Positions 12,184-60,486 are shown, numbered from the stretch's first letter. The stretch is 64,000 nucleotides of DNA from Patescibacteria group bacterium (GCA_018969615.1 JAGWYA010000002.1:3070-67069), one strand, 5' to 3'. The notes: generated by a model from the sequence alone, not told the origin. Numbers and translations are program-made.

Positions 12184-12250
12184 CCGCTCCCGAACAGCCA
12201 CTTATACACCCTTATTCTATTGTTCTTCACGAAGAAAAGGAGATATAATA

Positions 12251-13084: not shown

Positions 13085-13087
13085 AAC

Positions 13088-14665: not shown

Positions 14666-14682
14666 AAGACTAACTTCAACCC

Positions 14683-16707: not shown

Positions 16708-16710
16708 CAT

Positions 16711-17808: not shown

Positions 17809-17817
17809 GCGTTTGCC

Positions 17818-18327: not shown

Positions 18328-18375
18328 GAATATTTCGTTTCATACTTTTCGCGTTTCCCTTTATACTAATAACGT

Positions 18376-19041: not shown

Positions 19042-19042
19042 T

Positions 19043-20755: not shown

Positions 20756-20759
20756 CCCC

Positions 20760-21128
20760 ATGAATAAAAATGCAAAGATAGGCATTATTGATGCGATCAT
20801 TATGACACTGCTTTGCATCAGTGCAGATGCCGCCCAGATCATTGCTGATCTCAGTATCGCTATTCCAGTTGTCGGTGAGGTACTGCCATTAGCTGCATGG
20901 GCGTATGGGCTTGCCATTTCCGGTATTGTACTTTTTTGGCTTATAATGAAAGGAGTGAGCACGAAGTGGTTCCTTGGGGGAGCGGGTATCGATCTTATAC
21001 CTTTTGTAAATATCTTACCGGGAACTACCGCAGCGATCATTGCAACGATCATCGAGGATAATCTTCCTGAGAAGACAAAAGCAGTGACATCCCTTGTATC
21101 AAAAGCGGTCAATCCATTGGAAAAATAA
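20760..21128 (+). CDS. Small hydrophobic membrane protein (122 aa), possible pilin-like/T4SS subunit
   Basis: ATG 20760 directly after virB4; two long hydrophobic stretches; no signal-peptidase motif recognised. Confidence 0.4.
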   Translation: MNKNAKIGIIDAIIMTLLCISADAAQIIADLSIAIPVVGEVLPLAAWAYGLAISGIVLFWLIMKGVSTKWFLGGAGIDLIPFVNILPGTTAAIIATIIEDNLPEKTKAVTSLVSKAVNPLEK

Positions 21129-21877
21129 TGACGATCATGAGAACTCATACTAAAACCGGATCATTCGCCGCCCATCATCGACTGGCATGGTTTTCGGCTA
21201 TTTTACTGCCTACTGCCTACTGCCTCCTTGCTCTGACAGCAAACGCACAAACCGCTCCCGAGTTCATGGTTAGTTGGAAGGCCCTCGACTATGTTCCTGC
21301 GGACTATATCGGAAAAACATTGCCGACTCAAACGACGCAAGTCGAAGCGGCATTTGATGTGATCGATCAAGGAAAGATCGTCGATGTTTCAAAGAATATG
21401 ATAAATTGGTATGACAACAATGCCCTTATCGCCGCAGGGATAGGATTAAAGACGTTCAAGTTAACCCCCAGCAGCACGCAAAGCGACACCATCCGGATTG
21501 CGGTCTCGAATTATAATGCCAATGGGGATATCTCCACCTCATTTTTGGTCCCGATCGTGAAGCCTGAAGTGGCTGTCAGCGTACCGACACCGACCGCAAA
21601 TCTTTATCGGAACCGCACCGCTCTTGCACCTCAGCCCTATCTCCTTGAAGCCCGGCCTTTCTTTTTCAATGCGACCTCACTCTCCGGACTTACATTCTCT
21701 TGGCAGGTAAACAATACATCACCAACAGGGAATCCGGGAAATCCCAATTTTCTAACGCTTGATCTCTCTTCTCAAGGAACCCCTCAAGAAACCGATATTA
21801 CGCTTTCAGCCGGAGTGACTAATACCGGTAACCAACTCGAACTTGGCAGTCGCATGCTTAATCTTATCGTACAATAA
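21128..21877 (+). CDS. Secreted hypothetical protein; the signal-peptide coding region contains a (TACTGCC)x3 heptanucleotide repeat
   Basis: 249 aa; start overlaps the previous stop (taATG); signal peptide AILLPTAYCLLALTANAQT; heptamer tandem repeat at 21205-21228. Confidence 0.5.
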   Translation: MTIMRTHTKTGSFAAHHRLAWFSAILLPTAYCLLALTANAQTAPEFMVSWKALDYVPADYIGKTLPTQTTQVEAAFDVIDQGKIVDVSKNMINWYDNNALIAAGIGLKTFKLTPSSTQSDTIRIAVSNYNANGDISTSFLVPIVKPEVAVSVPTPTANLYRNRTALAPQPYLLEARPFFFNATSLSGLTFSWQVNNTSPTGNPGNPNFLTLDLSSQGTPQETDITLSAGVTNTGNQLELGSRMLNLIVQ

Positions 21878-21885
21878 CCATACAT

Positions 21886-23022
21886 ATGATCCATTATTCC
21901 TTTTCCGGTATCCCTAAAAAAGTCGCGATCTCTTTTTTAGTTGCATTCCTTTCAGTATCACTGGCTGGTCTTGCTGCGGCTCAACAATATGTGCCGCCGA
22001 TCAGTGGAGGGCAATGTCCCGCCGGTTCGATCCCGGCAGGAACATATTCTGATGGCACGCCCCGATGCCAAGTTCAATCGACAACCCCTGCCGCATCCAC
22101 AGCCAATACCTCAACCTCTCAGTCGGGGGACATTGTTCCTACAACACTTGGTCTCACGCCCTCGGGCCTTGTTGGTGTAACTTGTCCAAATGGATATACC
22201 GTGAACTATGACCTATCTGGGAATGGCGGGCAGATCTGCTTGAAGAACGGCGCGCCGACTCCATCAGGTTATCAGGTCCAATCAAGTACCGATACCGTGA
22301 AAGGCACGCCTGTCAGCTCTTCCACTGCAGCAGCCTTTAATCCTTCCTTAGCGCCTACGACTATTTCTCAGCATGTCGATTCTTATGCGGTTAAATACAC
22401 TATCCCATGCCAACCGACTGCCGGAGGAACGTGTCCCGCCGAAAGTAATTCATCGCCTGCAGCGTATATCGTCCGCCTCTATCAATTCGGTCTGATGATC
22501 GTCGGCCTCCTCGCGTTTGGCGCGATCGTCTATGGAGCATTGAAGTATATTCTCTCCGCGGGGAACATGGCCGATCAGTCCGATGCAAAAGATCAGATCA
22601 CCCAGGCGCTCTGGGGCGTTGTCCTCCTTCTTGGCGCCTATACGCTTCTTTATACGATCAATCCGCGGCTCGTCAGTTTAAGTAATCCGGAGATCGTTCC
22701 TCTGAACGTCTCGGCACTTCAATCACCGTCAGGGAATGGAACGCCGGGAAGTCAGATCCCGACCGCTGCCGGTCCAGGAGGCGATCCGCTTTGCAAGTTA
22801 TATGTGAATTCGGGTATTAACATAAACCTCTCAACCTCAGCAGGAAATCTTGGTGGAACTCCTCAAGGCTGCATCCAGTGTGTATCAAACGCATCAGTAT
22901 CAGGCGGCACATGCCAATGTGATACTGGATATACAACCACTGCAGGAACAGATAATAATACTTGTGTTCCGCTTCCGGCTAAAGGACCCAATAGTCCGAA
23001 ATTAACAGCCCCACTTCAATAA
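21886..23022 (+). CDS. Secreted Cys-rich protein with an internal pair of hydrophobic helices (VirB2/TrbC-pilin-like hairpin)
   Basis: 378 aa; signal peptide; many Cys in both N- and C-terminal thirds; central FGLMIVGLLAFGAIVYGALKYIL - loop - LWGVVLLLGAYTLLYTINP. Confidence 0.4.
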   Translation: MIHYSFSGIPKKVAISFLVAFLSVSLAGLAAAQQYVPPISGGQCPAGSIPAGTYSDGTPRCQVQSTTPAASTANTSTSQSGDIVPTTLGLTPSGLVGVTCPNGYTVNYDLSGNGGQICLKNGAPTPSGYQVQSSTDTVKGTPVSSSTAAAFNPSLAPTTISQHVDSYAVKYTIPCQPTAGGTCPAESNSSPAAYIVRLYQFGLMIVGLLAFGAIVYGALKYILSAGNMADQSDAKDQITQALWGVVLLLGAYTLLYTINPRLVSLSNPEIVPLNVSALQSPSGNGTPGSQIPTAAGPGGDPLCKLYVNSGININLSTSAGNLGGTPQGCIQCVSNASVSGGTCQCDTGYTTTAGTDNNTCVPLPAKGPNSPKLTAPLQ

Positions 23023-23065
23023 CAAACCCCCTCTGACATGACTGAGCATTTGAACATAACTCACT

Positions 23066-24148
23066 ATGAACTGGCTTAAACTTATAAAATATCTGGTCAT
23101 TATCCTCATCATTGTGGGGATCGTCTGGTTAGTGCGCTTCTTCTTTTTCTCAACGCCGGCAGGCCAAAATATTTTGAGCGCACTTCTCCCGCAACAGGCG
23201 GCGCAGCCGGTTGCCACTTCGACCGCGCAACAACTCAACGCACTGACCTCGGAACCGATCTTCGATTACTGGGTCAGTACGAGCACGAATGCCGTCTTTT
23301 ATGCGACCGAAACGGGGCAGATCATGAAGCTCGCCAATGCGCAAACAATGCCGGTTACATCCCAGACCATCACGCGGCTTCATTCCATTGCCGGATCATA
23401 TGATGGCGCATACGCCGTTGCCGAGTTCAATTATCCGTCCCTTCCGCTTTTCAGCGTCCTGACCACCGCGAATAAAACCTGGCAGCCACTGCCGGTCGGC
23501 ACGATCGCCGCCGCGTGGTCGCCTGACAAAGATCAGCTGGCCTACCTCAGCAGTACGGCATTGAATATCCTGGATATGGCCACGAATAAGACTACTCAGG
23601 TCATGCCGCTGACCCAGGAAGAACTGGCTATGACATGGGTGACCGATTCGAAGATCGTTTTGAGCACGCTGCCGACCGCCCAACTGAATACCGAGACCTG
23701 GACCATCGATCCGGTGAAGAAAACGATCACGTCGTCCCTGGAGGCCCCGGGGACCGTCACAAACTGGTCGCCGGACGGAACGATGGGCATCATGCTGACC
23801 AACACCAATAATGCTCCGGTTACGAGCCTCATCGATCCGAACCAAAACCAGCTCTCCCAGTTCTCCTTCGTCACGATGCCGGAGAAGTGCGCGTTCGACG
23901 GAACTAAGATCTACTGCGCGATCCCCAAAAACATTCCAACCCAGGCAACGCTTCCGGATGACTTCTACAAAAAATCGGTTTACTTCGATGATGCGATCTA
24001 TCTGATCGATCTTTCCTCGGGCGGATTCACGCAGGCGCAGACCGGCTCGGCAAACCCGATCGATGCGACCCATTTGGAAGTCCAGGGCTCGGCGCTGCTC
24101 TTCATCAACCGCCTCGACAACAAGCTGTACTCGCTGACACTGCAGTAG
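23066..24148 (+). CDS. TolB-like/PD40 beta-propeller repeat protein, membrane-anchored
   Basis: 360 aa; N-terminal TM; repeated WSPDKDQLAY / WSPDGTMGIM motifs typical of PD40 repeats. Confidence 0.5.
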   Translation: MNWLKLIKYLVIILIIVGIVWLVRFFFFSTPAGQNILSALLPQQAAQPVATSTAQQLNALTSEPIFDYWVSTSTNAVFYATETGQIMKLANAQTMPVTSQTITRLHSIAGSYDGAYAVAEFNYPSLPLFSVLTTANKTWQPLPVGTIAAAWSPDKDQLAYLSSTALNILDMATNKTTQVMPLTQEELAMTWVTDSKIVLSTLPTAQLNTETWTIDPVKKTITSSLEAPGTVTNWSPDGTMGIMLTNTNNAPVTSLIDPNQNQLSQFSFVTMPEKCAFDGTKIYCAIPKNIPTQATLPDDFYKKSVYFDDAIYLIDLSSGGFTQAQTGSANPIDATHLEVQGSALLFINRLDNKLYSLTLQ

Positions 24149-24366: not shown

Positions 24367-24795
24367 CAGGTCCAGCGGTTTGACCACCACCTGCCGCGCT
24401 TCGCCTTCGCCGATGCTTTCCGTTTTGATGTCAGGCCGCGTCGCAAGCTCCACATGCACCAACCGGCGTTCATAGGCGTTCATCGCCGGGAGAGAAACCT
24501 CTTTCTTCTCCAGAAGCGCTTTGCGCGCGGCCGCTTTCGCGAGCTCGCCGATCAGACGCTCCCGTTCACGCTTGTAGTTGTTCACGTCAACGATCACGCG
24601 TTCCAGTTGCATCTTCTTCGCCATCAAACGCACGACATGGTCGAGGTCCTGCATCAAACGCGGAAGGAATCGGGCAACCACATCCTCGTCATGGATAAAA
24701 ATGCTCACGCGGCGCCCTTCAGCGTCCACGTCAACCGAGAAGTCCAGCCCGGACGGCCGTAACATCTGTTCGATCGTTTGTTTAAGCGAGTCCAT
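24364..24795 (-). CDS. Jag/KhpB-like RNA-binding protein (Jag_N + KH + R3H)
   Basis: 143 aa; conserved position downstream of yidC in the rnpA-yidC-jag cluster; C-terminal R3H-like ERRLVHVELA motif. Confidence 0.7.
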   Translation of the reverse strand: MDSLKQTIEQMLRPSGLDFSVDVDAEGRRVSIFIHDEDVVARFLPRLMQDLDHVVRLMAKKMQLERVIVDVNNYKRERERLIGELAKAAARKALLEKKEVSLPAMNAYERRLVHVELATRPDIKTESIGEGEARQVVVKPLDL

Positions 24796-25501
24796 GTACT
24801 TTTTCTTCTTCTTTAATATTGATGGTCTTATTGATATAGATCTGCTGACCGGCGGTAAAGACCGAGGTCACCACCCAGTACAAACCGATCGCCGAAGGAA
24901 GAGTTCCCAGGATCACCACCGTGATCACCGGACCGATGAAGATCATCTGCCGCGTCATTTGATCCGCAGTCGAGAGCTCCTGCCCCTTTTCGAGCTTCGG
25001 TAGTGCCAGGCGCCCTTGCACGTATTGTGCCGCTGCCGCCAGGATAACCATAAGAATACTCGGATTTTGGAGATTGAGCAAGTGCAGGAACGTAGCGTTT
25101 ATCTGCTGCGGGACGGCAACAAAGCTATACAGCAGCGTCAGAGACTCCGGAGTGATCTTCTGTAAAAAGACGCGATAAAGTCCGATCAACACCGGAAGCT
25201 GGACCAGCAGCATCAAAAATCCCGAAAAAGGGTTCACATTATGCTGCCGATAGAGCTCCATCATAGCCTGTGCCTGTTTTTCTTTATCATCCTTATGCTG
25301 ATGCTGGATCTTTTTAATATCCGGCTGAAGCTTTTGAATAAGGGTCTGGTTCCGGGCGCCTTTATAGAAAAGCGGCATGAATGCGATACGGATCGCGAGC
25401 GTCAAAAGAATGATCGCAACGCCAAGATCATGAAACGCGATCGTGTTATAGAACACGATGAGCGCATTGAGGAACGGGGTGTAGAAAATGGCTTGGAGCA
25501 T
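24782..25501 (-). CDS. yidC: Membrane protein insertase YidC/Oxa1 (short form)
   Basis: 239 aa; multi-TM; conserved region LAIRIAFMPLFYKGARNQTLIQKLQPDIKKIQHQHKDDKEKQAQAMMELYRQHNVNPFSG; located between rnpA and jag. Confidence 0.8.
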   Translation of the reverse strand: MLQAIFYTPFLNALIVFYNTIAFHDLGVAIILLTLAIRIAFMPLFYKGARNQTLIQKLQPDIKKIQHQHKDDKEKQAQAMMELYRQHNVNPFSGFLMLLVQLPVLIGLYRVFLQKITPESLTLLYSFVAVPQQINATFLHLLNLQNPSILMVILAAAAQYVQGRLALPKLEKGQELSTADQMTRQMIFIGPVITVVILGTLPSAIGLYWVVTSVFTAGQQIYINKTINIKEEEKVHGLA

Positions 25502-25516
25502 AGAAAGATAAATGGC

Positions 25517-25846
25517 TTACCGGGCGATGCCGCGGACCGCTGCTGCGACCGATCGGGTAAGATCGTGCGCATCGGTGCGGGATGCTGCGGCGTTCACAAT
25601 GAAAAGAAGATCGGAACGGGAGAGAAGCTTCGGGGCGTGCATCTCCCGCAAGGCATTAAAGAAGATACGGCGGAGGCGCGTGCGGTCGGATGCTTTTTTC
25701 ACGGTCCCTTTTTTAAGAACAACGCCAAAACGGGCATAGGGGAACGGGCTCGGGAACACTTTAACTGAAAATTCGGGGAAGGGGATCGTGCGGCCTCGCA
25801 TGTCCCGGGTTGACTGGATCGGAAGACGGTATTTCTTTGCCAGCAT
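25517..25846 (-). CDS. rnpA: Ribonuclease P protein component
   Basis: 109 aa basic protein with KKYRL start, RTRLRRIF motif, and position downstream of rpmH. Confidence 0.8.
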   Translation of the reverse strand: MLAKKYRLPIQSTRDMRGRTIPFPEFSVKVFPSPFPYARFGVVLKKGTVKKASDRTRLRRIFFNALREMHAPKLLSRSDLLFIVNAAASRTDAHDLTRSVAAAVRGIAR

Positions 25847-25886
25847 AGATACGCGAATCGCGGGACATGCCCGCGAATTGCTTTAC

Positions 25887-26021
25887 TTAGACCGTCAACC
25901 GATGACGCCCCTTATGACGGCGCGCCGTCAGTACTCGGCGCCCTCCCTTCGTCCTGTTCCGGCGAAGGAAACCATGCGTCCGGGCCCGTTTTCGCTTTTT
26001 AGGTTGATATGTTTGCGACAT
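25887..26021 (-). CDS. rpmH: 50S ribosomal protein L34
   Basis: 44 aa [44 protein letters not shown]; the ORF track extends to 26225, but the canonical L34 starts at the ATG whose complement is CAT at 26019-26021. Confidence 0.9.
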
Positions 26022-26217
26022 GAAACCAGTATATACTATCGTTTCAGGCGAGGCAAGCAAGGAATTCGCTCCGCTGCACGGCCATTTTTTGCGATCCGAC
26101 AGGCATTGCATGGCATACCAGCGCACGTTTGATACAAAATGGCAAATTACTATGGACAAACGATCTGCGTCTCGGTCATACTGATAAAAAATACACCCGT
26201 TGCTGATGCAAAAACAG

Positions 26218-26226
26218 TTATCCACA
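26218..26226 (+). promoter_or_regulatory. Perfect DnaA box TTATCCACA in the rpmH-dnaA intergenic region (candidate oriC/dnaA promoter element)
   Basis: Exact 9-mer consensus; nearby AT-rich tract taaaatgaatatatatttt at about 26280-26300. Confidence 0.6.
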
Positions 26227-26392
26227 AGGCATCAACAGATTATTATCTTTTCACTGTTTCCTTCTGCGGCGCATCCGTTTAAAATGAATATATATTTTCG
26301 GTGTGTTTCTCCGGTACTTCTTAAAAATCATTTTTCAGTCCGTTGAAGTAAGGCAACGGGCGGTGGGAGAGTAATCATTTTATTTTTTTATC

Positions 26393-27760
26393 ATGGAGTT
26401 CGAACAATTGTGGCAAACTGCGCTCGGTGAAATAGAAACTCAGGTTTCTAAGCCGAACTTTGCGACCTGGCTGAAGAACAGTAAGCTCTTGGACAAGCAA
26501 GAAGGCGTGGTCTTGGTCGGACTTCCGAACACTTTTGCAAAAGAATGGGTGGAGAACAAGTATCAGAAGATCATTTTGAACGCGCTGCGCAATCAGGACC
26601 AGGCGACAAAGAAGGTTCAGTTCACGGTGCATAACACGAACATCGCTCCGACGCCGCTCCCGCAGCGAAAACCGAAGCAGGTCAGCGAAGAAGAGTTCAA
26701 GAAACAGCTTGCGTTCGAAGAACTGAAGATCGATCCGGAAACGAACCTCAATCCGCGCTATCGCCTGAGTTCGTTTGTCGTCGGCAAAACGAACGAACTC
26801 GCGTACGCCGCCGCAAGCGCGGTTATTGATGAGATCGGCCGGAAATATAATCCGTTGTTCTTCTACGGCGGCACCGGACTGGGAAAGACCCATCTCATCC
26901 AGGCGATCGGGAACGAGATCAAAGTGCGCTACAAGGATAAAGTACGCGTGAAATATGTGTCGTCCGAAAAATTCACGAACGATGTGATCTACGGGATCCG
27001 GAACAAGCGCATGGAGGACATGAAGGACAAGTACCGGAACGTCGACGTTCTGATCATCGATGATATTCAGTTCATCGGCGGCAAGACCACGACGGAAGAG
27101 GAGTTCTTCCATACCTTCAACGCGCTCTACGAGAACAATAAACAGATCATCATCTCGTCCGACCGCCCGCCGAAGTTCATCCCGACCCTGGAAGACCGCC
27201 TGCGGTCCCGGTTCGAAGGCGGCATGATCGCGGATATCTCCTATCCTGACTACGAACTGCGCCTTGCTATCTTAAAGACTAAGCTCCAGGAGCGCGGAGC
27301 GGCCTTGCCGGAGAACATCGTTGAGTTCATCGCCAATAAGATCCAGAAGAACCTTCGCGAACTGGAGGGGGTGCTGAACCGGATCCTGTTCTACCAGTAC
27401 GCAAAGAAGGAAGTGACCCTGAAGATGGTGGAAGAGATCGTCAGCGGCGTCCTTCAGCAGCCGACCAAGAACATCAATCCGAACCAGGTCATTAAAGCGG
27501 TCGCTGATTACTATGAGATCTCCCAGAACGATCTGACCGGCCGCTGCCGCCAGAAAAGCATCGTAGAACCGCGCCAGATCACCATGTACCTCCTCCGGGA
27601 CATTCTCGGCCTTTCCTACCCGGATATCGGCCAAAAACTGGGCAAGCGCGACCATACCACGGCGATCTATGCGACGAATAAGATCTCCGAAGAGATCAAT
27701 AAAGATCAGGACCTCAATCAGAAGATCCTGGCGATCAAAGATCTGGTTTATAAAGAATAA
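26393..27760 (+). CDS. dnaA: Chromosomal replication initiator protein DnaA
   Basis: 455 aa; N-terminal domain, Walker A GGTGLGKTHL, Walker B VLIIDDIQF, sensor/arginine finger, C-terminal DNA-binding HTH (TTAIYATNKI). Confidence 0.95.
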   Translation: MEFEQLWQTALGEIETQVSKPNFATWLKNSKLLDKQEGVVLVGLPNTFAKEWVENKYQKIILNALRNQDQATKKVQFTVHNTNIAPTPLPQRKPKQVSEEEFKKQLAFEELKIDPETNLNPRYRLSSFVVGKTNELAYAAASAVIDEIGRKYNPLFFYGGTGLGKTHLIQAIGNEIKVRYKDKVRVKYVSSEKFTNDVIYGIRNKRMEDMKDKYRNVDVLIIDDIQFIGGKTTTEEEFFHTFNALYENNKQIIISSDRPPKFIPTLEDRLRSRFEGGMIADISYPDYELRLAILKTKLQERGAALPENIVEFIANKIQKNLRELEGVLNRILFYQYAKKEVTLKMVEEIVSGVLQQPTKNINPNQVIKAVADYYEISQNDLTGRCRQKSIVEPRQITMYLLRDILGLSYPDIGQKLGKRDHTTAIYATNKISEEINKDQDLNQKILAIKDLVYKE

Positions 27761-27762
27761 GG

Positions 27763-27853
27763 TGGGGATAAGGGATAGGATAGTCTCTGTATAAATATGA
27801 ACGTTCACACTGCATATAAAAATTATCCGAAGATCTTCAGAGGGTTATCCACA
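27763..27853 (+). promoter_or_regulatory. Candidate oriC in the dnaA-dnaN spacer: DnaA boxes TGGGGATAA (27763-27771, reverse orientation, 1 mismatch), TTATCCGAA (27823-27831) and perfect TTATCCACA (27845-27853), plus an AT-rich stretch
   Basis: Boxes read directly from the sequence; AT-rich segment tgtataaatatgaacgttcacactgcatataaaaatta between them. Confidence 0.55.
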
Positions 27854-27959
27854 AGAAATCAGCGGAAAGAAAAACTCTTTTTTCGTTATTCCGTCTGGCT
27901 TCTCCGGTTTTCTCCCCTGTATTAACATCCCCTATTACCTCTTCTAATTCTTTATCTAT

Positions 27960-29069
27960 ATGAAATTAGTAATACTCAAAAATAATCTCCGCGAAGGATT
28001 AACGGCGATTGACCGGGCTGCGGGAGAACATGCGAACCTTCCGATCCTGAAAAATGTCCTGGTAAAGACCGCTGATAATAAGATCCGCCTTTCGGCGACG
28101 AACCTTGAGATCGCCGCATCGCGGTCCGTATCGGGAAAGATCGTTGAGGAAGGGAGTATTACGGTTCCGCTTGCGACCTTGCTGACGATCGTGAACAATA
28201 CGGCAAGCGAACGGATCACGCTCGAGACCGACCAGAACACGCTGTTTTTCAAGACGGATAACTATGAAGCGACCATTCAGGGTCTTCCTGAAGAGGAATT
28301 TCCGATCATTCCGAAGATCGAGAATAAGAAGGAATATCTCTCGTTCAGCGCGGATGTTCTGCGCGATGCGGTCCTGAAGATCCTTTCAACGATCCAAGTT
28401 TCAGAGATCCGTCCCGAGATCGGCGGGATGCTTTTTGATTTTGAGATCACGTACCTGAAATTTGCGGGAACGGACAGTTTCCGGCTTGCGGAAAAAACGA
28501 TCACGGAAACGAATTTTACCAGCACGTTTACCCGCGGGTTTAAAGTGATCGTTCCGCTGAAAACGATGCAGGAAGTGCTCAGGATCATGGTTAAAGGCGA
28601 GGTGACGATCTTCATTGATCCGAACCAGATCCTCTTTCAAGGCGAGGATACCGAGATCATTTCCCGGCTTATCGAGGGGACCTATCCCGAGTATGACGCG
28701 ATCACGCCGAAATCATTTGAAACGGAAATGACGATCGAACGCGAGCATCTGATGAATGCGGTCAAATTGGTCAGTACGTTCAGCGGAAAAGTGAACGAGA
28801 TCAAAATGAAACTTCACGACGGAAAGAAGGTGTTGGAGGTCTATTCGATGAATCAGGCGCTGGGTGAAAATAAATATCTGGTGCCGGTCAAAGCGAAAGG
28901 GGAATCGTTCGAGACCGCGTTCAATTGGCGGTATGTCATGGAAGGATTGAAGAACTTTGAAAGCGCCGAAGTGTTCTTCGGTGTGAATGGCAGCCATCGT
29001 GCGGCGCTGCTGAAGAATCCGAGCGACGCATCATATTTTTATATTGTGATGCCGATCAATATGAACTAA
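27960..29069 (+). CDS. dnaN: DNA polymerase III beta sliding clamp
   Basis: 369 aa, immediately downstream of dnaA; typical MKLVILKNNLREGL start and three-domain length. Confidence 0.9.
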   Translation: MKLVILKNNLREGLTAIDRAAGEHANLPILKNVLVKTADNKIRLSATNLEIAASRSVSGKIVEEGSITVPLATLLTIVNNTASERITLETDQNTLFFKTDNYEATIQGLPEEEFPIIPKIENKKEYLSFSADVLRDAVLKILSTIQVSEIRPEIGGMLFDFEITYLKFAGTDSFRLAEKTITETNFTSTFTRGFKVIVPLKTMQEVLRIMVKGEVTIFIDPNQILFQGEDTEIISRLIEGTYPEYDAITPKSFETEMTIEREHLMNAVKLVSTFSGKVNEIKMKLHDGKKVLEVYSMNQALGENKYLVPVKAKGESFETAFNWRYVMEGLKNFESAEVFFGVNGSHRAALLKNPSDASYFYIVMPINMN

Positions 29070-52959: not shown

Positions 52960-54297
52960 ATGAAGACAGCGCTTCACGTACTGGGATGGGTGGCATTCCT
53001 ATTGGGTGCCGCATTCGTCTATATTCTGACGCGGATCTGGTTCATGTGGTTTCCGGTGATGTATTTCCCGAAGCCGACGGAAATGCATCAGCCGATCCCG
53101 CAGTACTCGCTCCGAACTTTCGGCGTTCCGGTGCGGGCTGGATTCGCGAAACGCGATATCACACCGTCCGGCATTCCGTGGCTCGGCGGCTATATGCCGC
53201 CGCATCCCGCGTTTGCCGTCGATAGTCGTCTGTGGGTGAAGAGCCTTGCGCTCGAAGATGCGCATGGCCATACGCTGGTGCTTGTCTCGTGCGAACTGGT
53301 CGGCATGCTGCCGACCGATGTCGCGAAGATCAAGGCGCGGATCACGGGCGTGCCGCCTGATCATATCCTGATCATGGCGACGCATACCCATTCGGGTCCC
53401 GATACGATCGGGTTCTGGCTGGGACGACGGAAGGCGTACATGGAGTTCCTCCGCTCTCAGGTCGCAGCCGCTATTCAAAGATCGATCAACGGGTTGGGGC
53501 CGGCGGCGATCCGATACGGACGCGGAGCGTCTCCGTACGGAGAAAAGAACGTCAGGAACTGGGCGAACGGGAGCGATGATAATCCCCCCGATCCGCAGAT
53601 CGCGGTGATCCAGGTGTTGATGAAGCATTCTCCGCGGAACCGCTTGGTGACGCTGGTGAACTGGTCGTGCCATCCGGATATCGTCGAAGGATTCGCGGTG
53701 ACGGGAGACTTCCCGCACTTTCTGAGCGAGCGTTTGAAACGCCGCTTGGGAAGCGAAACGATGTATGTCCAGGGCGCGATCGGCGCGGTTCAACCGGAAG
53801 CGGGGAACAACGACGACAAGTCTGCGCAGACCTTCCTGGAGCGGAATCTCGGCGAAAAACTCGGCGACAAGGTGGTCTCGATCATGCGGCATCCATTGCC
53901 GATGAAGGGCGCTGACATTTCGGTCATCGGACAGACGGTCCGGGCGCCGTTTGAGAACACGCAGGACATGGCTTTCGCGCTGCATCATCATATGGTTCCG
54001 GACCTTCTTGACTCGCATGGCGATCTCGTCACGCGGGTGGAGCGGGTGACGCTGGGACCGATGACGATCCTGACGGTGCCGGGCGAACTGTTCCCGGATA
54101 TCTGGTGGTCGGTGAAGCGACTGATGCACGGTCAGACGCATATGGTGTTCGGCCTGTGCAATGCCGAGTTCGGTTACATCCTTCTTCCGAGGGATTTCCG
54201 GAACGGACGGCATCGGTATCACACGAGCGTGTCCATCGGGCCGACGTTCGGCGCGCGGATCTCCGAAGCATTGCATTTTCTCGCTGTGCAAAAATAA
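52960..54297 (+). CDS. Neutral/alkaline ceramidase-like hydrolase, membrane-anchored
   Basis: SD aaggaag; N-terminal TM; AGFAKRDITP, GGYM, LVLVSCELVGM and the hallmark IMATHTHSGPD motif of the neutral ceramidase N-terminal domain. Confidence 0.65.
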   Translation: MKTALHVLGWVAFLLGAAFVYILTRIWFMWFPVMYFPKPTEMHQPIPQYSLRTFGVPVRAGFAKRDITPSGIPWLGGYMPPHPAFAVDSRLWVKSLALEDAHGHTLVLVSCELVGMLPTDVAKIKARITGVPPDHILIMATHTHSGPDTIGFWLGRRKAYMEFLRSQVAAAIQRSINGLGPAAIRYGRGASPYGEKNVRNWANGSDDNPPDPQIAVIQVLMKHSPRNRLVTLVNWSCHPDIVEGFAVTGDFPHFLSERLKRRLGSETMYVQGAIGAVQPEAGNNDDKSAQTFLERNLGEKLGDKVVSIMRHPLPMKGADISVIGQTVRAPFENTQDMAFALHHHMVPDLLDSHGDLVTRVERVTLGPMTILTVPGELFPDIWWSVKRLMHGQTHMVFGLCNAEFGYILLPRDFRNGRHRYHTSVSIGPTFGARISEALHFLAVQK

Positions 54298-54303
54298 TTG
54301 CAT

Positions 54304-54333
54304 CGCCCCGACTTCAGTCGGGGCGCTTTTTTA
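54304..54333. terminator. Terminator hairpin cgccccgacttcagtcggggcg + TTTTTT; near-identical to the hairpin at 57968-57989
   Basis: Perfect stem-loop; 20 of 22 nt identical to caccccgacttcggtcggggtg. Confidence 0.7.
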
Positions 54334-54382
54334 TTTGGGCCGTGAAAACGGTATAATAGAACTAAGAAGGCCTTTGCTCTTT

Positions 54383-54739
54383 ATGCGTTTTTCCGACATC
54401 TCATTCGTCTATCTTTTGAACCGGCTCCTGCAGCGTCTGGTGGATTTTGTCCGCCATTGGTATGTGGACGGTTTTTTCCAGGCCGTTGATTGGATGTTGG
54501 ATATTTTGGAGAAGCTCGACCGCAGTTTTGCGCTCCGGATCACGGTCAAATATTGGCTCCAGCCGCTGTATCAGGATTACACGATGATTGGTTATGTCTG
54601 GGGCTTCATCTTCCGGACGGTCAGGATCCTGATCGCGCTTGTCGTCTATCTGCTTTTGATCGCCTGCGCACTGGCGTTGTTCCTTGCCTGGGCGGCGATC
54701 CCGCTGTGGGTGCTCTATAATATTTTCACGAACCTATGA
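54383..54739 (+). CDS. Small polytopic membrane protein (118 aa)
   Basis: Internal ATG of ORF 54161..54739, downstream of the terminator and promoter; its stop overlaps the start of the Clp-like gene (ATGA). Confidence 0.45.
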   Translation: MRFSDISFVYLLNRLLQRLVDFVRHWYVDGFFQAVDWMLDILEKLDRSFALRITVKYWLQPLYQDYTMIGYVWGFIFRTVRILIALVVYLLLIACALALFLAWAAIPLWVLYNIFTNL

Positions 54740-57273
54740 CGCCCGCCGCACCTCAAGCCGTATTTTCAGAACCGCGTTTCCGGATGACGCACGGCGGCCG
54801 CCTGTTGGTCCGGGTCATTTTCTATATCGGATATGCGCTTACGCTGGTCGCTGCGGCGATCTTCTTGCTCTCCGATGTTAAATGGATCTTTTGGACCGGG
54901 GTCTTGCTCGCGCTTTTTATCATCGACCATATCAAACATTACGGCCAGGCGCGCCGGTCGCTCCGTGAAGCGCCCGGACCGAACGCGAACCTTGCGGATT
55001 ATTTGAATCCCGCGAGTTTCGGCGTACTGGAATATTCGTTCGAGCGGAGCCTGCTCGTCGGCGGGAACTTCTATCTGTTCCTGATGAAGAAACTTTTGGA
55101 GCGGAAGAACATCCGCGCCGGCTTGGTGCGCATGGATATCAACGTGCAGGAGGTCGCCGATAAAGTGGAGGCGCTTTTGAAAGAAAGCCTTGCGGATCCG
55201 AAGTTCCGGACGAACAGCGCCGAGCGCAAGCAGAAGCTCTTGGGGGAGATCGAAAAGATCGTCGCGCTCGCCTCGCAGCAGGCGCTTGCCGCGGATAATC
55301 GCTTCATCGAACCGAAAGACATCTTCGCGGCGCTCAGTTATTGCGACAGTACGGCGGTTTTGCGGGTGTTGCAGCTTTTCGGCGTCGATCCGGGCGATCT
55401 GGAAAAAGCCCTGATCTTCGGCCGGTACCGGAAGTCCGGGCTGTTCCGCCAGCTGCCGGGAACGATCGGAGGCTTTGTTTATAAATCGTACAAGGTGCGC
55501 CACCGCGTGATGAACCGGGCATGGAGCGCGCGGCCGACGCCGCTGCTGGACCAGTACAGCGAGGACCTGACCGATTTTGCGCGGCTGGGAGAGGTCGGCT
55601 TTTTGATCGGCCACCGGGAGGAATATGAGCGGATGGTCGACATCTTGTCGCGTCCGTCCAAGCCGAACGTATTACTGGTCGGCGAGCCGGGTGTCGGAAA
55701 AGAAGCGCTCGTGACCCATTTGGCCTATAAGATCTCCAAGGACGAGGTTCCGGCCGAGCTGTTCGATAAGCGGTTGGTCTTGCTCCGCATCGGGAGCCTG
55801 ATGGCGGGCGCGGGGAACGCCGGCGAGATCCAGGCGCGGGTGACGCGGATCGTGGAGGAGATCGTCCAGGCGGGGAATATCATCCTGTATTTCCCGGATA
55901 TCCATAATCTGTTGAAGACCTCCGATAAGTCGGGCGTGAACGCGGCGGATATCTTTTTGCCGGCGTTCTCATCCAGTGCCTTCTCGCTGATCGGCGCGAC
56001 CTATCCGAAAGAGTACAAGCAGACGCTCGAGCCGCAGGCGGATTTTGTCGAGGTGTTCGAGAACATTCCGGTTGAAGAGATCACGATCGATGAAGCGACG
56101 ACGCTCCTGGTGTACGACAGCATTATTTTGGAGCGGCAGTTCGGCATTACGATCACCTTCGGCGCGGCAAAACAGGCGGTCCAGCTCGCTTCGAAATATT
56201 TCCGCGATAAATTATTGCCGTCCAGCGCCGAGGACCTTTTGAAAGAAGCGCTGTCCGATGCGAAAGGGAAGAATGAGAAGATGCTCGACAGCGATGCGGT
56301 CATCGATGTCGCGCAGCGGCGCGTGACGATCCCGTTGCGCCAGGCGAAAGCGGCGGAAGCGGAGAAGCTTCTGCATATGGAGGACATCATCCATGAACGC
56401 CTCGTGGACCAGGAGGAAGCGGTCAAGGCGGTTTCCGAAGCATTGCGGGAATACCGGAGCGGTCTTTCGCGCAAAGGAGGACCGATCGCGACGTTCCTGT
56501 TCGTCGGGCCGACCGGCGTCGGTAAAACGGAGCTTTCCAAGATCCTGGCGAACATCCAGTTCGGATCGGAGGATGCGATGGTCCGCTTCGACATGTCCGA
56601 ATATCAGGACAAGCAGAGCGTGTTCCGCTTTATCGGGTCTCCGGACGGTGCGGTCAGCGGCGAACTGACCGATGCGATCCTGAAGAAGCCGTACTGCCTC
56701 GTGCTGCTCGATGAGTTTGAAAAAGCGCATCCGGATATCCTGAACCTGTTCCTGCAGGTGTTCGACGACGGACGTCTGACCGACAACATGGGCCGGACGG
56801 CTGATTTCCAGAACACGATCATCATCGCGACCAGCAACGCGAACTCGGACTTTATTAAGTCATCCATCGAAGCGGGGAAGACCATGGCGGACATCAGCGA
56901 CGAAGTGAAGAAAAAACTGACCGAGACGTTCCGTCCCGAGCTGGTGAACCGTTTTTCCGGCATCATCGCGTTCAAGGACCTTTCCAAAGATGATACCTTC
57001 GCGATCGCGAAGATCCTATTGAGCGACCTGGCGAACGATGTGAATGAAAAACAGGGGATCCGGATGCAGTTCTCGGACGATGCGGTGCGGCAGATCGCGA
57101 CATGGGGATATGATCCGGTCTTTGGCGCCCGTCCGTTGCGTGAGGTGATCTCGAACAAGGTCCGGAGCGTGCTTGCGGAAAAGATCCTCCGCGGAGAAGT
57201 ACAAAAAGGCGGGAATCTGGTAATATCTATAGAGGGCGGAGAACTGAAGTTCGACTCCCACGATGATTTTTAA
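54736..57273 (+). CDS. Membrane-anchored Clp/Hsp100-family double AAA+ protein (ClpC/ClpA-like) with a degenerate D1 module
   Basis: 845 aa. Two N-terminal TM helices; Clp_N-like repeats. D1 Walker A is GEPGVGKE (Thr to Glu) and Walker B is ILYFPDIH (Glu to Ile). D2 is intact (GPTGVGKTEL, LVLLDEFEKAH, GARPLRE). Both pore loops lack the canonical aromatic residue (AGNAGE; GSPDGAVSG). Confidence 0.75.
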   Translation: MTPAAPQAVFSEPRFRMTHGGRLLVRVIFYIGYALTLVAAAIFLLSDVKWIFWTGVLLALFIIDHIKHYGQARRSLREAPGPNANLADYLNPASFGVLEYSFERSLLVGGNFYLFLMKKLLERKNIRAGLVRMDINVQEVADKVEALLKESLADPKFRTNSAERKQKLLGEIEKIVALASQQALAADNRFIEPKDIFAALSYCDSTAVLRVLQLFGVDPGDLEKALIFGRYRKSGLFRQLPGTIGGFVYKSYKVRHRVMNRAWSARPTPLLDQYSEDLTDFARLGEVGFLIGHREEYERMVDILSRPSKPNVLLVGEPGVGKEALVTHLAYKISKDEVPAELFDKRLVLLRIGSLMAGAGNAGEIQARVTRIVEEIVQAGNIILYFPDIHNLLKTSDKSGVNAADIFLPAFSSSAFSLIGATYPKEYKQTLEPQADFVEVFENIPVEEITIDEATTLLVYDSIILERQFGITITFGAAKQAVQLASKYFRDKLLPSSAEDLLKEALSDAKGKNEKMLDSDAVIDVAQRRVTIPLRQAKAAEAEKLLHMEDIIHERLVDQEEAVKAVSEALREYRSGLSRKGGPIATFLFVGPTGVGKTELSKILANIQFGSEDAMVRFDMSEYQDKQSVFRFIGSPDGAVSGELTDAILKKPYCLVLLDEFEKAHPDILNLFLQVFDDGRLTDNMGRTADFQNTIIIATSNANSDFIKSSIEAGKTMADISDEVKKKLTETFRPELVNRFSGIIAFKDLSKDDTFAIAKILLSDLANDVNEKQGIRMQFSDDAVRQIATWGYDPVFGARPLREVISNKVRSVLAEKILRGEVQKGGNLVISIEGGELKFDSHDDF

Positions 57274-57285
57274 CGAATACGAACT

Positions 57286-57939
57286 ATGAAGATCAAGATC
57301 GATGTCAGTTTAAATGTAGGCAAAGTGGTCAAGACGCTCGTCCTTTCCGATTTCATACTCATGGCGGGATGGGGATTTATCTCGCCGATGTTTTCGGTGT
57401 TCATTGTGAACAAGATCGCCGGCGCGACCCTGGCGACGGTCGGTATCACGACCGCCTTGTATTGGTTGCTCCGCTCGCTCATCCAGCTTCCGATCGCGAA
57501 TTACCTTGATCGCTCTGAGGCGGAAAAAGATGATTTTTATGCGCTTATTTTTGCATTGATCCTGGCGGGCATCTCCGCGTTCGGCTACACCGTCGTCCGC
57601 ACCGTCCCGCAGCTGTATTTCTTCCAGGTGCTTCAGGCGATCGCGTTCGGGATCTACACGCCGTCTTGGTCAGGGATCTTTTCAAGGCATTTGGACGAGA
57701 AGCGCAGGTCTTTCGATTACTCACTGGATAGCACTGCGATTGGGGTCTCTTCCGGTGTCGCGGGACTTCTTGGCGGCCTTATCAGCCAGCGATTCGGATT
57801 TAATGCGATCTTTGTTCTGGGCGGCACCTTATCGCTGTTCGCGGCGTTTGTGGTGATCACGTTCCCGAAATTGATCATTCCGCCAAAGGTATCGAATGTG
57901 ACCGAAATGCGCGATCATCGCCCGCCGGCGACCGGATAG
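57286..57939 (+). CDS. Six-TM membrane protein, MFS-transporter half-like
   Basis: 217 aa; six hydrophobic helices; no full 12-TM MFS repeat. Weak assignment. Confidence 0.4.
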   Translation: MKIKIDVSLNVGKVVKTLVLSDFILMAGWGFISPMFSVFIVNKIAGATLATVGITTALYWLLRSLIQLPIANYLDRSEAEKDDFYALIFALILAGISAFGYTVVRTVPQLYFFQVLQAIAFGIYTPSWSGIFSRHLDEKRRSFDYSLDSTAIGVSSGVAGLLGGLISQRFGFNAIFVLGGTLSLFAAFVVITFPKLIIPPKVSNVTEMRDHRPPATG

Positions 57940-57961: not shown

Positions 57962-57996
57962 AAAAAACACCCCGACTTCGGTCGGGGTGTTGTTTC
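57962..57996. terminator. Bidirectional terminator hairpin AAAAAA caccccgacttcggtcggggtg TTGTTT
   Basis: Perfect stem-loop between convergent genes; homologous to the 54304 hairpin. Confidence 0.65.
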
Positions 57997-57997
57997 G

Positions 57998-58639
57998 TTA
58001 AGGGACTTTGATCAACTGGGAAGGATCGAGCTTCGGCGGGCTGATCATATTGCCGAACACGCGGAGGAACGAGCTCTGCCGGTCCGCGGTCTTGATCGGC
58101 GTCCGGTTCAGATCGATGCCGGCGACCTCATCGATGCCGGTCTTATCGTTCTTCCGGAAGATGATCGTCAGTTGAGTGTCGACGCCTCGGCTGCAGGTAT
58201 CGAAGTTATTGACGTAGGCGAGCTCGCGGTCGGTTCTCAGTTGACGCCAATTCGCATGGCATCGGATCGCCGAGTACTGCCGCTTGCTGTCCATTGCCGT
58301 CTGGATGCTCGACTCGGGGATGATGGAGCTTCCCAGAATGAGCTGGGACGCTTCGATCCAGCCGACCGCATCGCACGGATGCGAGACGGAGGTCTCGGTG
58401 GTGAAACCGAGTCCCATGACCGTTTCTTTGGTCATGCCGTCCTTCAGCTTCAGCGCCGCTTCCCCGAACTCCTTGGGGTCGTTATGGAACGCACCCTGGA
58501 CGTCGATGCTCTTCTGGTCGTTCTTCCAGATGGAACGTTTGTTCCACTGATCGGCGGACGGACACCGCAGCGGCGCGGAAGCGCACGCCGAAGCGCCGAT
58601 AGCGTACAGGACGATCGCGAGAGTCTGTCGTATGGACAT
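57998..58639 (-). CDS. Secreted hypothetical protein, possible lipoprotein (213 aa)
   Basis: ATG (CAT 58637-58639) with SD gaaagaggg; signal peptide MSIRQTLAIVLYAIGASACAS. The ORF track extends to 58831, overlapping the polX start. Confidence 0.5.
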   Translation of the reverse strand: MSIRQTLAIVLYAIGASACASAPLRCPSADQWNKRSIWKNDQKSIDVQGAFHNDPKEFGEAALKLKDGMTKETVMGLGFTTETSVSHPCDAVGWIEASQLILGSSIIPESSIQTAMDSKRQYSAIRCHANWRQLRTDRELAYVNNFDTCSRGVDTQLTIIFRKNDKTGIDEVAGIDLNRTPIKTADRQSSFLRVFGNMISPPKLDPSQLIKVP

Positions 58640-58761
58640 TTTCCCTCTTTCGGTATGTAAGTTACTGCATCCACTATAGGGTTTTTTGAGGGGCGGTGTC
58701 AATGAAAAAAAATATGCGCTCTGCATGCGCCTGAGGGGGTGCGGCGGTATACTAAAAGGGT

Positions 58762-60486
58762 ATGGTGAACGACGAAATTGCCCGCCTTTTGCGGGAGATC
58801 GCGATCTATCTCGAGATGGATGATGTTCCATTCCGGCCGCGCGCTTATGAGAAGGCGAGCGAGGGTGTTTTAGGCTCCGATGAGGACATGAAAGAGGTTT
58901 ATGCCCGGGGCGGGCTCAAAGCGCTGGAACAGGTACCGGCGGTGGGTGTTTCGATCGCGGAAAAGATCGAGGAATTTTTGAAGACGGGAAGGATCGCCTA
59001 TCACGACGAGCTGAAGAAAAAGGTCCCGGTGGAGCTTGGCGAGTTTGCGGGCATCGAAGGGATCGGCCCGAAGACCCTGAAGACGCTCTATCAGAAATTG
59101 AAGGTCAGGAACCTTGCCGATCTTGAGAAGGCGGCGCAGCAGGGGAAGATCAAAAAGCTTCCGGGCTTCGGTCCGAAAAGCGAAGAGAATATTCTGCAGG
59201 GGATCGCGTTCGTCCGCCGTTCGGGCGGCCGTTTCGTGCTCGGCCAGGTGATGCCGGAGATCGAACTGATCCGGGAGCGCCTGGGCGTGCTTGCCGGTGT
59301 GGAAAGCGTGACGGTGGCGGGATCGGTGCGCCGAAGAAAGGATACGGTCGGCGATGCGGACCTGTTAGTCATCGCGAAGAAGCCGAAGCCGGTGATGGAC
59401 TATTTTGTTGCGATGCCCGAGGTGGTCCAGGTCCATGCGCACGGCGAGACGAAATCGTCCGTGAAGCTCAAGAACGGGATGGATGTCGATGTGCGGATCG
59501 TGCCGAAGGAATCCTACGGCGCGGCGCTGAACTATTTTACCGGATCGAAGGACCATAACGTCGCGCTCCGCGAGCTTGCGATCAAAAAGGGATGGAAGCT
59601 GAACGAATACGGCCTGTTCGCGGGAACGAAGCGGATCGCGGGCAAGACCGAGGACGAGGTGTACCGGAAGCTGGGATTGCGCTATATCGAGCCGGAACTG
59701 CGGGAAATGACCGGCGAACTGGAGGCGGCGCGGAAGAACGCGCTTCCGGACCTGATCCCGTACGGATCGCTCCGAGGTGATCTCCAGGTGCAGACGGATT
59801 GGACGGACGGCGACGCTTCGATCGAGGAGATGGCGCAGACTGCGATCAAGGCGGGCTTGGACTATATCGTGATCACCGACCACACGAAGCGCCTGGCGAT
59901 GACGCACGGATTGGATGCCAAGCGGATCAAGCAGCAATGGGCCGAGATCGACCGCGTGAACGCGGCGCTCAAGAAGAAAGGAAAGAAGTTCACGATCTTG
60001 AAAGGGACCGAGTGCGATATTTTGAAGGACGGAACGATGGACCTTCCGGACGAGATCCTCGCGCAATGCGATGTGGTCGGCGGATCGGTGCATTCGCTGT
60101 TCAATCTGCCCGAGAAGGAACAGACCGCCCGGATCATGCGGGCAATGAGCAACCCGCACGTGGATATCATCTTCCATCCGACCGGCCGGGTGCTCAACAA
60201 GCGCGAAGCGTATGCCGTGAACATGCCCGAGCTGATCCGTCATGCGAAAAAGACGGGAACGGTCCTGGAGATCGATGCGTACCCGGATCGCGCGGACCTG
60301 AAAGCGGAGCATATCCGCCTGTGCGTGGAAGCTGGCGTGAAGATGTCCATTGATTCCGATGCGCATGCGCCGGCGCATATCCAGTTCCTCGACTACGGCG
60401 TCGCGCAGGCGCGCCGGGGCTGGGCCGGAAAGAAGGATATCATCAACGCGTGGCCGCTCGAAAAGATGCTGAAAATGTTGAAATAG
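58762..60486 (+). CDS. polX: Family X DNA polymerase with C-terminal PHP phosphoesterase domain
   Basis: 574 aa; HhH motifs (GVGVSIAEKI, GIGPKTLKTL); Pol-beta palm with GSVRRRKDTVGDADLLV; PHP His/Asp motifs (ITDHT, HS, HP). Confidence 0.85.
   Translation: MVNDEIARLLREIAIYLEMDDVPFRPRAYEKASEGVLGSDEDMKEVYARGGLKALEQVPAVGVSIAEKIEEFLKTGRIAYHDELKKKVPVELGEFAGIEGIGPKTLKTLYQKLKVRNLADLEKAAQQGKIKKLPGFGPKSEENILQGIAFVRRSGGRFVLGQVMPEIELIRERLGVLAGVESVTVAGSVRRRKDTVGDADLLVIAKKPKPVMDYFVAMPEVVQVHAHGETKSSVKLKNGMDVDVRIVPKESYGAALNYFTGSKDHNVALRELAIKKGWKLNEYGLFAGTKRIAGKTEDEVYRKLGLRYIEPELREMTGELEAARKNALPDLIPYGSLRGDLQVQTDWTDGDASIEEMAQTAIKAGLDYIVITDHTKRLAMTHGLDAKRIKQQWAEIDRVNAALKKKGKKFTILKGTECDILKDGTMDLPDEILAQCDVVGGSVHSLFNLPEKEQTARIMRAMSNPHVDIIFHPTGRVLNKREAYAVNMPELIRHAKKTGTVLEIDAYPDRADLKAEHIRLCVEAGVKMSIDSDAHAPAHIQFLDYGVAQARRGWAGKKDIINAWPLEKMLKMLK

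Follow-up and report, generated by a model that had tools for sequence, protein, structure and literature searches.

A membrane-anchored Clp/Hsp100 ATPase of Patescibacteria with a degenerate D1 ring and non-aromatic pore loops, predicted to work with a small membrane partner

The window analysed here, a 64,000-nucleotide stretch of DNA from a Patescibacteria group bacterium (GCA_018969615.1, JAGWYA010000002.1:3070-67069), encodes an 845-residue ATPase which its domain content places in class I of the Clp/Hsp100 superfamily. Machines of the Hsp100 type are known from textbooks as threading motors, with the tyrosines of their pore loops as the defining feature. The window ATPase appears to represent a natural lineage of these machines in which the tyrosines are gone from both rings, one ring is silenced, a membrane anchor and a dedicated partner have been gained, and the second ATPase site is perfect. 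We read it as a ClpP- and DnaK-independent remodeller or regulator of membrane partners, driven by its second ATPase module (D2) and working with the small protein encoded directly upstream, a reading that we consider plausible, if somewhat short of probable.

Pfam recognizes AAA_2 (1.1e-52, residues 583-741), ClpB_D2-small (2.1e-20), AAA_lid_9 (6e-07) and AAA in the protein. The best phmmer match among PDB sequences was ClpB of T. thermophilus (9e-125), followed by ClpC of B. subtilis (2e-123), and both ATPase modules, D1 and D2, align to each of ClpB, ClpC and ClpA. Foldseek likewise returned ClpC of S. aureus and B. subtilis (E ~1e-56 to 1e-45) and ClpB at the top, and the AlphaFold2 model of the ATPase has a mean predicted local distance difference test (pLDDT) value of 82. 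The scores against the NCBIfam models lie far under the respective cut-offs, with 515 bits versus 1232 for ClpB (TIGR03346), 441 versus 1417 for NF008118, 479 versus 993 for ClpA (TIGR02639) and 408 versus 885 for ClpV/TssH (TIGR03345). Together with the missing middle (M) domain, ClpP loop and pore-loop tyrosines, these scores uphold a preliminary description of this DNA, according to which the protein is not a standard ClpB or ClpC. Within the 64-kb window, its gene is the sole AAA+ Clp gene found.

The register of the motifs, which are listed with their counterparts in Table 1, was set by the phmmer alignments to ClpB of T. thermophilus and ClpC of B. subtilis. In D1, the Walker A Thr is replaced by Glu in the alignments to ClpB and ClpC, as had been noted before. 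The Walker B motif carries Pro in place of Asp and Asp in place of the catalytic Glu; the preliminary description, one residue out of register at this point, had the Asp kept and the Glu replaced by Ile, and its conclusion of an inactive D1 stands even more firmly. Both Arg fingers are lost, and the pore loop contains no Tyr. In D2, the Walker A and B motifs and the sensors are intact, as is the Arg finger, and the pore loop is shortened and non-aromatic: GSPDGAV----SGE aligns to GAPPGYVGYEEGGQ, corresponding to a Tyr to Ala exchange and a four-residue deletion relative to ClpB. For the two pore loops and the D2 motifs, alignments and family conservation thus agree with what had been described. 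Hence, D1 is predicted to be a conserved, catalytically dead pseudo-ATPase, while D2 alone is predicted to be able to hydrolyse ATP.

Neither an M-domain nor a ClpP-docking loop was detected in the ATPase. ClpA aligns in one stretch, and the alignments to ClpB and ClpC are split at their M-domains (ClpB residues ~410-505 are skipped). The longest helix within residues 451-575 of the AlphaFold2 model comprises 19 residues, and no coiled coil is formed; the unbroken ClpA alignment and the lack of a coiled coil argue that the M-domain is absent. At the position where ClpC carries KYVGFNVQDET, the ATPase reads IEAG followed by a gap of seven residues, and the same region aligns to ClpB without gaps. 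As this deletion falls on the place of the VGF motif and the consensus of the family is [IL]EAG, the ClpP-docking loop is missing, and a search for an IGF/L loop in the ATPase, as suggested in the preliminary description, found none. The database name 'ATP-dependent Clp protease ATP-binding subunit ClpC/ClpA' would therefore be misleading. A Peptidase_M41 domain was not matched by Pfam in the ATPase either.

The N-terminus of the ATPase contains two hydrophobic helices according to hydropathy (residues 23-46 and 50-66, with a Kyte-Doolittle maximum over 19 residues of 2.43), and the AlphaFold2 model shows a hairpin of helices at residues 19-44 and 49-67 with a pLDDT of ~90. Both lines of evidence back the two transmembrane helices proposed earlier. 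Since the flanks of the hairpin are rich in Arg and Lys, an N-in/C-in topology is suggested, and the ATPase is predicted to be an integral membrane protein whose AAA+ body lies in the cytoplasm. Family members share the conserved motif (L)YFxDPRLxMTxxGR ahead of the first hydrophobic helix, which supports the ATG at 54736 as the true start.

The hairpin is followed by a region of two helical repeats (residues 85-230), whose halves align with each other (hhalign P = 3.5e-4), indicating an internal repeat. The sequence and profile matches of this region are weak (E 0.07 to ~1), most of them to the N-domains of ClpB, ClpC and ClpA, and Pfam Clp_N gave no match to the window ATPase at E<=0.01. Four homologues have precomputed PF02861 matches, and the UniRef name for relatives is 'Clp R domain-containing protein'. 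The Clp_N-like repeats of the preliminary description thus have moderate support, and the region is probably a divergent Clp_N member. The basic linker that connects it to D1 is predicted to be disordered at residues 232-264 (pLDDT<50), and it is among the best conserved segments of the ATPase, with a mean conservation of 0.77. It is kept even in a Torokbacteria member of only 37% identity. This most divergent member (L028:4321-6993) carries an additional Zn-ribbon-like element, CPVC...CQDC, before the transmembrane hairpin.

To describe conservation, we scored a close set of 118 full-length relatives and a distant set of 37 full-length representatives with 33-52% identity, together ~155 sequences. 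More than 118 full-length relatives share 54-95% identity with the window ATPase, and all those with a lineage name belong to Parcubacteria-type Patescibacteria (Harrison-, Wolfe-, Zambryski- and Pace-bacteria, Minisyncoccota); named distant members come from Colwellbacteria and Liptonbacteria. When the N-terminal 270 residues were searched against 1.84 billion cluster representatives, 216 clusters were obtained, 157 of them at E<=1e-10; the full-length ones are uniformly 804-851 residues long. A homologue search with the N-terminal 360 residues of the Torokbacteria member gave no matches, so that the taxonomic range rests on the other searches.

The degeneration of D1 is shared by the family. 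In the close set, 101/118 sequences carry Glu or Asp in place of the Walker A Thr, the Walker B motif has Pro, followed by Asp or Glu, in 116/118, and the Arg fingers are lost. In the distant set, Walker A of D1 is variably degenerate and none of the 37 representatives has a DE in Walker B. The D2 Walker A and B, sensor 1 and sensor 2 motifs, by contrast, are identical in 117-118 of the 118 close relatives with an invariant R739, and GPTGVGKT and DE are kept in 36/37 distant representatives, the exception being P0230, which has lost the D2 motifs. The hairpin is kept across the family, and a hydrophobic N-terminus is present in all 37. An aromatic pore-loop residue was found in none of the ~155 sequences, in neither loop. 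In the close set the flanks of the D2 loop (GSPDG...G.LT) are conserved, with D637 in 113/118, while the loop tip of the distant set is polar or charged and variable (GKTSG, GERTG, GQSRG). As identical substitutions recur in 118 close and 37 distant members, the motif losses are not due to chance, and purifying selection on the whole ATPase is evident.

The gene that overlaps the start of the ATPase gene encodes a protein of 118 residues, referred to as the partner in the following. It is 100% identical to 'hypothetical protein KGO95_01735 [Patescibacteria group bacterium]', matches no Pfam, NCBIfam or PADLOC family and has just 32 database relatives, all annotated as 'hypothetical'. The AlphaFold2 model (pLDDT 87.5) consists of two long helices, only the second of which is hydrophobic: an amphipathic helix at residues 2-49, a loop with the sequence QPLYQDY, and a hydrophobic helix at residues 68-117 with a GxxxG motif. 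The second helix carries R78 and R81 at its start, on the inner side, and an aromatic belt of W103, W109 and Y112 near its end, which suggests a single-pass N-in/C-out protein with a predicted cytoplasmic part of 80 residues. The conserved motifs RHWYVDGF, LExLDxxFA, QPLYQDY, GxxxGFxFRxxR and W...P are kept down to the Torokbacteria member.

A scan of species-representative genomes for the partner identified 21 loci in Paceibacter, Harrison-, Jorgensen-, Wolfe- and Torok-bacteria, some labelled Saccharibacteria, viewed like all related loci in windows of 10 kb or less. In 21/21, the next gene downstream is that of the Clp-like ATPase. Four further distinct loci were reached via the ATPase, and all have the partner upstream, in one case as an uncalled open reading frame (ORF) with a GTG start; the two genes often overlap or abut. 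The third gene of the window unit encodes a half-size member of the major facilitator superfamily (MFS), which confirms the downstream protein with six transmembrane helices of the preliminary description. It covers only positions 2-174, the N-terminal half, of the 347-position Pfam model MFS_1, shows weak NCBIfam similarities that include the lipid flippase LtaA, and measures 210-217 residues in relatives; such half-MFS proteins would need to dimerise. It follows the ATPase gene in ~20/26 distinct loci, overlaps its stop codon in several, and is missing in five lineages. From these counts, the partner and the ATPase form an invariant core and the half-MFS a frequent third component. The comparison of loci hence found the partner upstream of the ATPase at every locus examined and the half-MFS at most.

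By homology with other Hsp100 proteins, six subunits would assemble into a ring, held by the hairpins at the cytoplasmic face of the membrane with its N-domain/D1 face towards it. The ring would contribute 12 transmembrane helices, with the helices of the partner around them. D1 would act as a structural ring, a role for which its mean column conservation of 0.73 argues, given that it is catalytically dead; structural silent rings are known from NSF (D2), p97 (D1) and Pex1/Pex6 (D1). Hydrolysis in D2 would be converted into conformational work on membrane-embedded partners or clients, which may be engaged by the N-domain, the basic MNRAW linker and the cytoplasmic helix of the partner, without processive threading. 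The invariance of the D2 site indicates that ATP hydrolysis matters. Since the [LIV]-G-[FL] loop is absent, docking to ClpP is not expected, and since the M-domain is absent, neither is a drive by DnaK or MecA; the aromatic pore-loop grip of threading unfoldases is predicted to be absent as well. The logic of such a machine would be Torsin/LAP1-like or Pex1-Pex6/Pex15-like, and neither that of a ClpB disaggregase nor that of a ClpA/ClpC protease feeder.

Several points weigh against this remodeller. The hexamer, its physical contact with the partner and the kind of clients it acts on are all features that we infer. With the Arg finger of D2 intact, the active site is complete without a cofactor, unlike in Torsin. 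In 95/118 close relatives, the position of the lost Tyr is followed by Met, Ile or Val, and in this clade a weak hydrophobic grip and some threading may have been retained. Finally, gene order around the unit is broadly conserved, with PolX, NUDIX and rplT-rpmI-infC travelling along in many species, and the neighbourhood signal may therefore partly reflect shared ancestry.

The same residues after the lost Tyr, together with the conserved loop flanks, would suit a processive extractor or unfoldase of membrane proteins that works without a protease, similar to Msp1/ATAD1 or an FtsH lacking its protease, with D2 drawing membrane or secretion substrates from the bilayer by an aliphatic or polar loop and the partner as adaptor or substrate receptor. 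The fully intact D2 motor and the anchor, which turns the entry face of the ring to the membrane, also fit. However, exchange of the pore-loop Tyr for Ala in ClpX, ClpB and Hsp104 is known to abolish or severely weaken unfolding, and here both loops lack aromatic residues throughout the ~155 sequences. In addition, the D2 loop has lost four residues, and across the wider family its tip varies and is made up of polar or charged residues. This disfavours a classical threading extractor; an extractor with a weaker grip is the main rival, possible but less likely than the remodeller. The preliminary description had suggested a scaffold or a specialised extractor for membrane or secretion substrates; a passive form of the first is opposed by the invariant D2 catalytic site, and a classical threading form of the second by the polar and variable loop tip. 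A more far-reaching version of the remodeller is rather unlikely: the ATPase ring, six or more partners and the half-MFS might form a bacterial membrane machine of an unknown kind that powers transport or membrane remodelling without a gripping pore, a prokaryotic counterpart of the Torsin type and the first integral-membrane Hsp100. One possibility is that such a machine gates or drives the half-MFS, which would serve as a flippase or channel through which these lipid-auxotrophic epibionts scavenge the lipids and other molecules that they must obtain from the host; another is that it exports or extracts proteins where the membrane touches the host.

A general disaggregase that substitutes for ClpB, is simply tethered to the membrane and has unrelated syntenic passengers as neighbours would be in line with ClpB and ClpC as nearest sequence relatives, with the resemblance of the region lacking the ClpP loop to ClpB, and with the broad synteny of the genomic block. 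We regard it as improbable, as there is no M-domain for coupling to Hsp70, the pore-loop tyrosines are gone, D1 is dead, and the NCBIfam ClpB score falls far short of the cut-off; moreover, the partner overlaps the start codon of the ATPase and is present at every locus examined, down to 37% identity. Even further removed is a protein lacking any ATP-driven function, be it a passive scaffold or a pseudo-enzyme in decay: the dead D1, the degenerate pore loops and the loss of the D2 motifs in P0230 point in this direction, but the D2 catalytic site is invariant in the close set and its Walker motifs persist in the distant one, length and architecture are uniform, and the whole protein is evidently under purifying selection, so that such a role is very improbable. 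An anti-phage defence or mobile-element module, like the Dodola or PDC-M37 ClpB-like ATPases, is scarcely credible. The PADLOC models DolB and PDC-M37B do match the D2 half (E 1e-33 to 1e-36), but these matches are limited to the generic D2 at residues 534-819, the partner and the half-MFS match nothing, searches against phages and plasmids gave no match, and the locus lies in a conserved housekeeping neighbourhood in many species.

A translocase of DNA or other nucleic acids was also considered, since the loop tip is polar or basic, the linker is basic and PolX is a conserved neighbour. It was rejected as the leading idea, given the nearly invariant D637 in the loop and the position of PolX in a larger syntenic block.

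The literature search did not find a description of a membrane-anchored bacterial Hsp100 or of the family of the window ATPase, and the survey of protein families of the candidate phyla radiation by Méheust et al. 2019 contains no mention of Clp. The window ATPase probably does a different job at the membrane than ClpB and ClpC, and the purifying selection on its lineage spans a whole class of Patescibacteria. The family hints at a membrane function yet to be characterised, in organisms about whose envelope and reliance on hosts little is known. As a bacterial and potentially more tractable system, it may serve as a model for AAA+ proteins that act at membranes without aromatic loops, such as the Torsins.

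The three ORFs lie on the same strand at coordinates identical to those of the preliminary description (Table 1). The ATPase start and the partner stop codon overlap in an ATGA (54736-54739), and terminators on both sides together with a TATAAT upstream make the three genes look like a single transcription unit. The terminator on the 5' side closes an upstream gene for a 445-residue protein. The TATAAT hexamer was read off the sequence and the promoter is inferred, as a consensus promoter scan made no call there; no CIRCE or CtsR-like heat-shock operator was seen by eye in 54326-54382. With the overlap, the flanking terminators, the partner always upstream and the half-MFS mostly downstream, the earlier proposal of an operon with two membrane proteins is well founded.

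Table 1. Coordinates of the genes, protein segments, motifs and regulatory elements of the ATPase unit in the window.
Feature	Position	Strand	Remarks
Intrinsic terminator	54304..54325	+	9-bp stem with 8 GC pairs, then T-run; 5' limit of the unit
Putative promoter, perfect TATAAT -10 hexamer	54352..54357	+	26 nt before the partner ATG; -35 weak
Small partner gene	54383..54739	+	118 aa; from ORF listing
ATPase gene	54736..57273	+	845 aa; start overlaps partner stop
N-terminal membrane hairpin	54790..54936	+	aa 19-67; loop of 4-5 residues
Divergent Clp N (R) domain (probable)	54988..55425	+	aa 85-230; two four-helix repeats (AlphaFold2)
Basic linker	55429..55542	+	aa 232-269; family-specific; consensus RPYKIRHRxMNRAWTARPTP
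D1 AAA+ module	55543..56340	+	aa 270-535; no working catalytic motifs, no M-domain insert
D1 Walker A	55681-55704	+	GEPGVGKE versus GEPGVGKT in the phmmer alignment
D1 pore loop	55804-55827	+	AGAGNAGE versus AGAKYRGE
D1 Walker B	55879-55902	+	IILYFPDI; IILYFPDIH versus VILFIDELH
D1 Arg-finger positions	56050-56055	+	EV; DFVEVFE versus ClpB ALERRFQ
D2 AAA+ module and ClpB_D2-small	56341..57270	+	aa 536-845; catalytic motifs intact
D2 Walker A	56506-56529	+	GPTGVGKT
D2 pore loop	56635-56661	+	GSPDGAVSG; shortened, non-aromatic
D2 Walker B	56698-56721	+	LLDEFE
D2 sensor 1	56836-56838	+	N701
ClpP-loop position	56860-56883	+	SSIEAGKT; no [LIV]-G-[FL] motif
D2 Arg finger	56950-56952	+	R739
D2 sensor 2	57124-57132	+	GAR797-799
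Half-MFS gene	57286..57939	+	217 aa; 12 nt past the ATPase stop
Bidirectional intrinsic terminator	57966..57991	.	11-bp stem, 27 nt past the MFS stop; 3' limit of the unit

The 445-residue protein encoded upstream of the unit (52960-54297) has an N-terminal transmembrane helix and an HTHSGPD motif and no Pfam match; relatives of it were found upstream at some related loci only. A 433-residue gene at the equivalent place in one related locus (L001) has Pfam MJ0043_C, and tblastn with the 445-residue protein of the window gave no match to it. Downstream, between the MFS and PolX genes, a 277-residue ORF on the minus strand (57998-58831) belongs to no Pfam family and shows a lipoprotein-like signal, MSIRQTLAIVLYAIGASACASAP, behind an internal Met; a near-consensus sigma-70-like promoter is located in its region at 58702-58673 on the minus strand. 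The PolX-PHP DNA polymerase gene (58762-60486) is found downstream of the ATPase or MFS gene in most related loci, including those without the MFS gene, an association that is probably conserved synteny and not a functional link. Another related locus contains, a few kb past the ATPase gene (L003:11656-13033), a bAvd gene paired with a reverse-transcriptase gene (RVT_1), a combination characteristic of diversity-generating retroelements.

Elsewhere in the window, an origin region (24782-29069) contains dnaA (26393-27760, plus strand) and dnaN (27960-29069, plus strand) as well as a YidC-like (24782-25501) and an rnpA-like gene (25517-25846), both on the minus strand. These identities were read by eye from the translations. 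The minimum of the cumulative GC skew lies at ~26-28 kb and, with dnaA and dnaN, marks the chromosomal origin. Beside the origin, a series of large proteins encoded on the plus strand, secreted or membrane-bound and lacking Pfam families (11816-24148), includes a PrgI/VirB3-like protein (17818-18327), a VirB4/TraG-P-loop ATPase (18959-20755) and a weak type IV secretion pilin-like match under the Pfam cut-off (21886-23022); it was read as a Gram-positive-type type IV secretion-like cluster.

Among the known systems, ClpB/Hsp104 provides the best sequence match and shares the arrangement of a (here probable) N-domain, D1, D2 and D2-small as well as the lack of a ClpP-docking loop. The window ATPase differs from it in lacking the M-domain and the pore tyrosines, in the loss of the D1 motifs and in the added transmembrane hairpin. 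ClpC is the best match by structure, and ClpA aligns end to end with no M-domain gap; unlike these proteins, the window ATPase has neither the VGF/IGL loop nor aromatic loops nor the MecA-binding M-domain of ClpC, its D1 is inactive and it is membrane-anchored. From ClpV/TssH it is set apart by a score far under the family cut-off and by its neighbours (partner, half-MFS, PolX), among which no type VI secretion system genes were found. The Dodola DolB and PDC-M37B proteins match only in part, and neither the partner nor the half-MFS has a counterpart in PADLOC.

The SMAX1/D53-type plant proteins are Hsp100 descendants with degenerate ATPase motifs that have taken on roles other than unfolding. 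They are soluble nuclear regulators. The D2 site of the window ATPase is fully intact; the Pfam model NBD_SMAX1 matches D1 faintly and below the threshold (16.7 versus 27 bits). The classical AAA proteins Pex1/Pex6 with Pex15/Pex26, NSF and p97 resemble the window ATPase in having one silent ring and the other as the motor, and in Pex1/Pex6 also in membrane recruitment via a small tail-anchored protein. They belong to a different clade, carry aromatic threading loops in their active rings and have no membrane anchor of their own. In FtsH and Msp1/ATAD1, as in the window ATPase, an N-terminal transmembrane anchor sets the entry of the ring against the membrane, and their clients are membrane proteins; they contain only one AAA module, of the classical type and equipped with an aromatic loop, and FtsH adds an M41 protease, none of which is present here.

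A parallel in terms of logic is offered by the Torsins, which are related to Clp/Hsp100 proteins, lack aromatic pore loops, are associated with membranes and depend on transmembrane cofactors (PMC5425593). Torsin with LAP1 or LULL1 shares with the window system the Clp/Hsp100 descent, the missing aromatic loops, an N-terminal hydrophobic segment for membrane association and, on the reading proposed here, a small transmembrane cofactor (PMC5425593). It differs in having a single module, in its location in the lumen of the endoplasmic reticulum and in an Arg finger supplied by the cofactor, whereas the window ATPase has two modules, is predicted to face the cytoplasm and possesses its own R739. 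The Torsin cofactor is a degenerate AAA+ fold, while the partner in the window is a two-helix protein. The likeness to the Torsins is thus best taken as an analogy and not as membership of their family.

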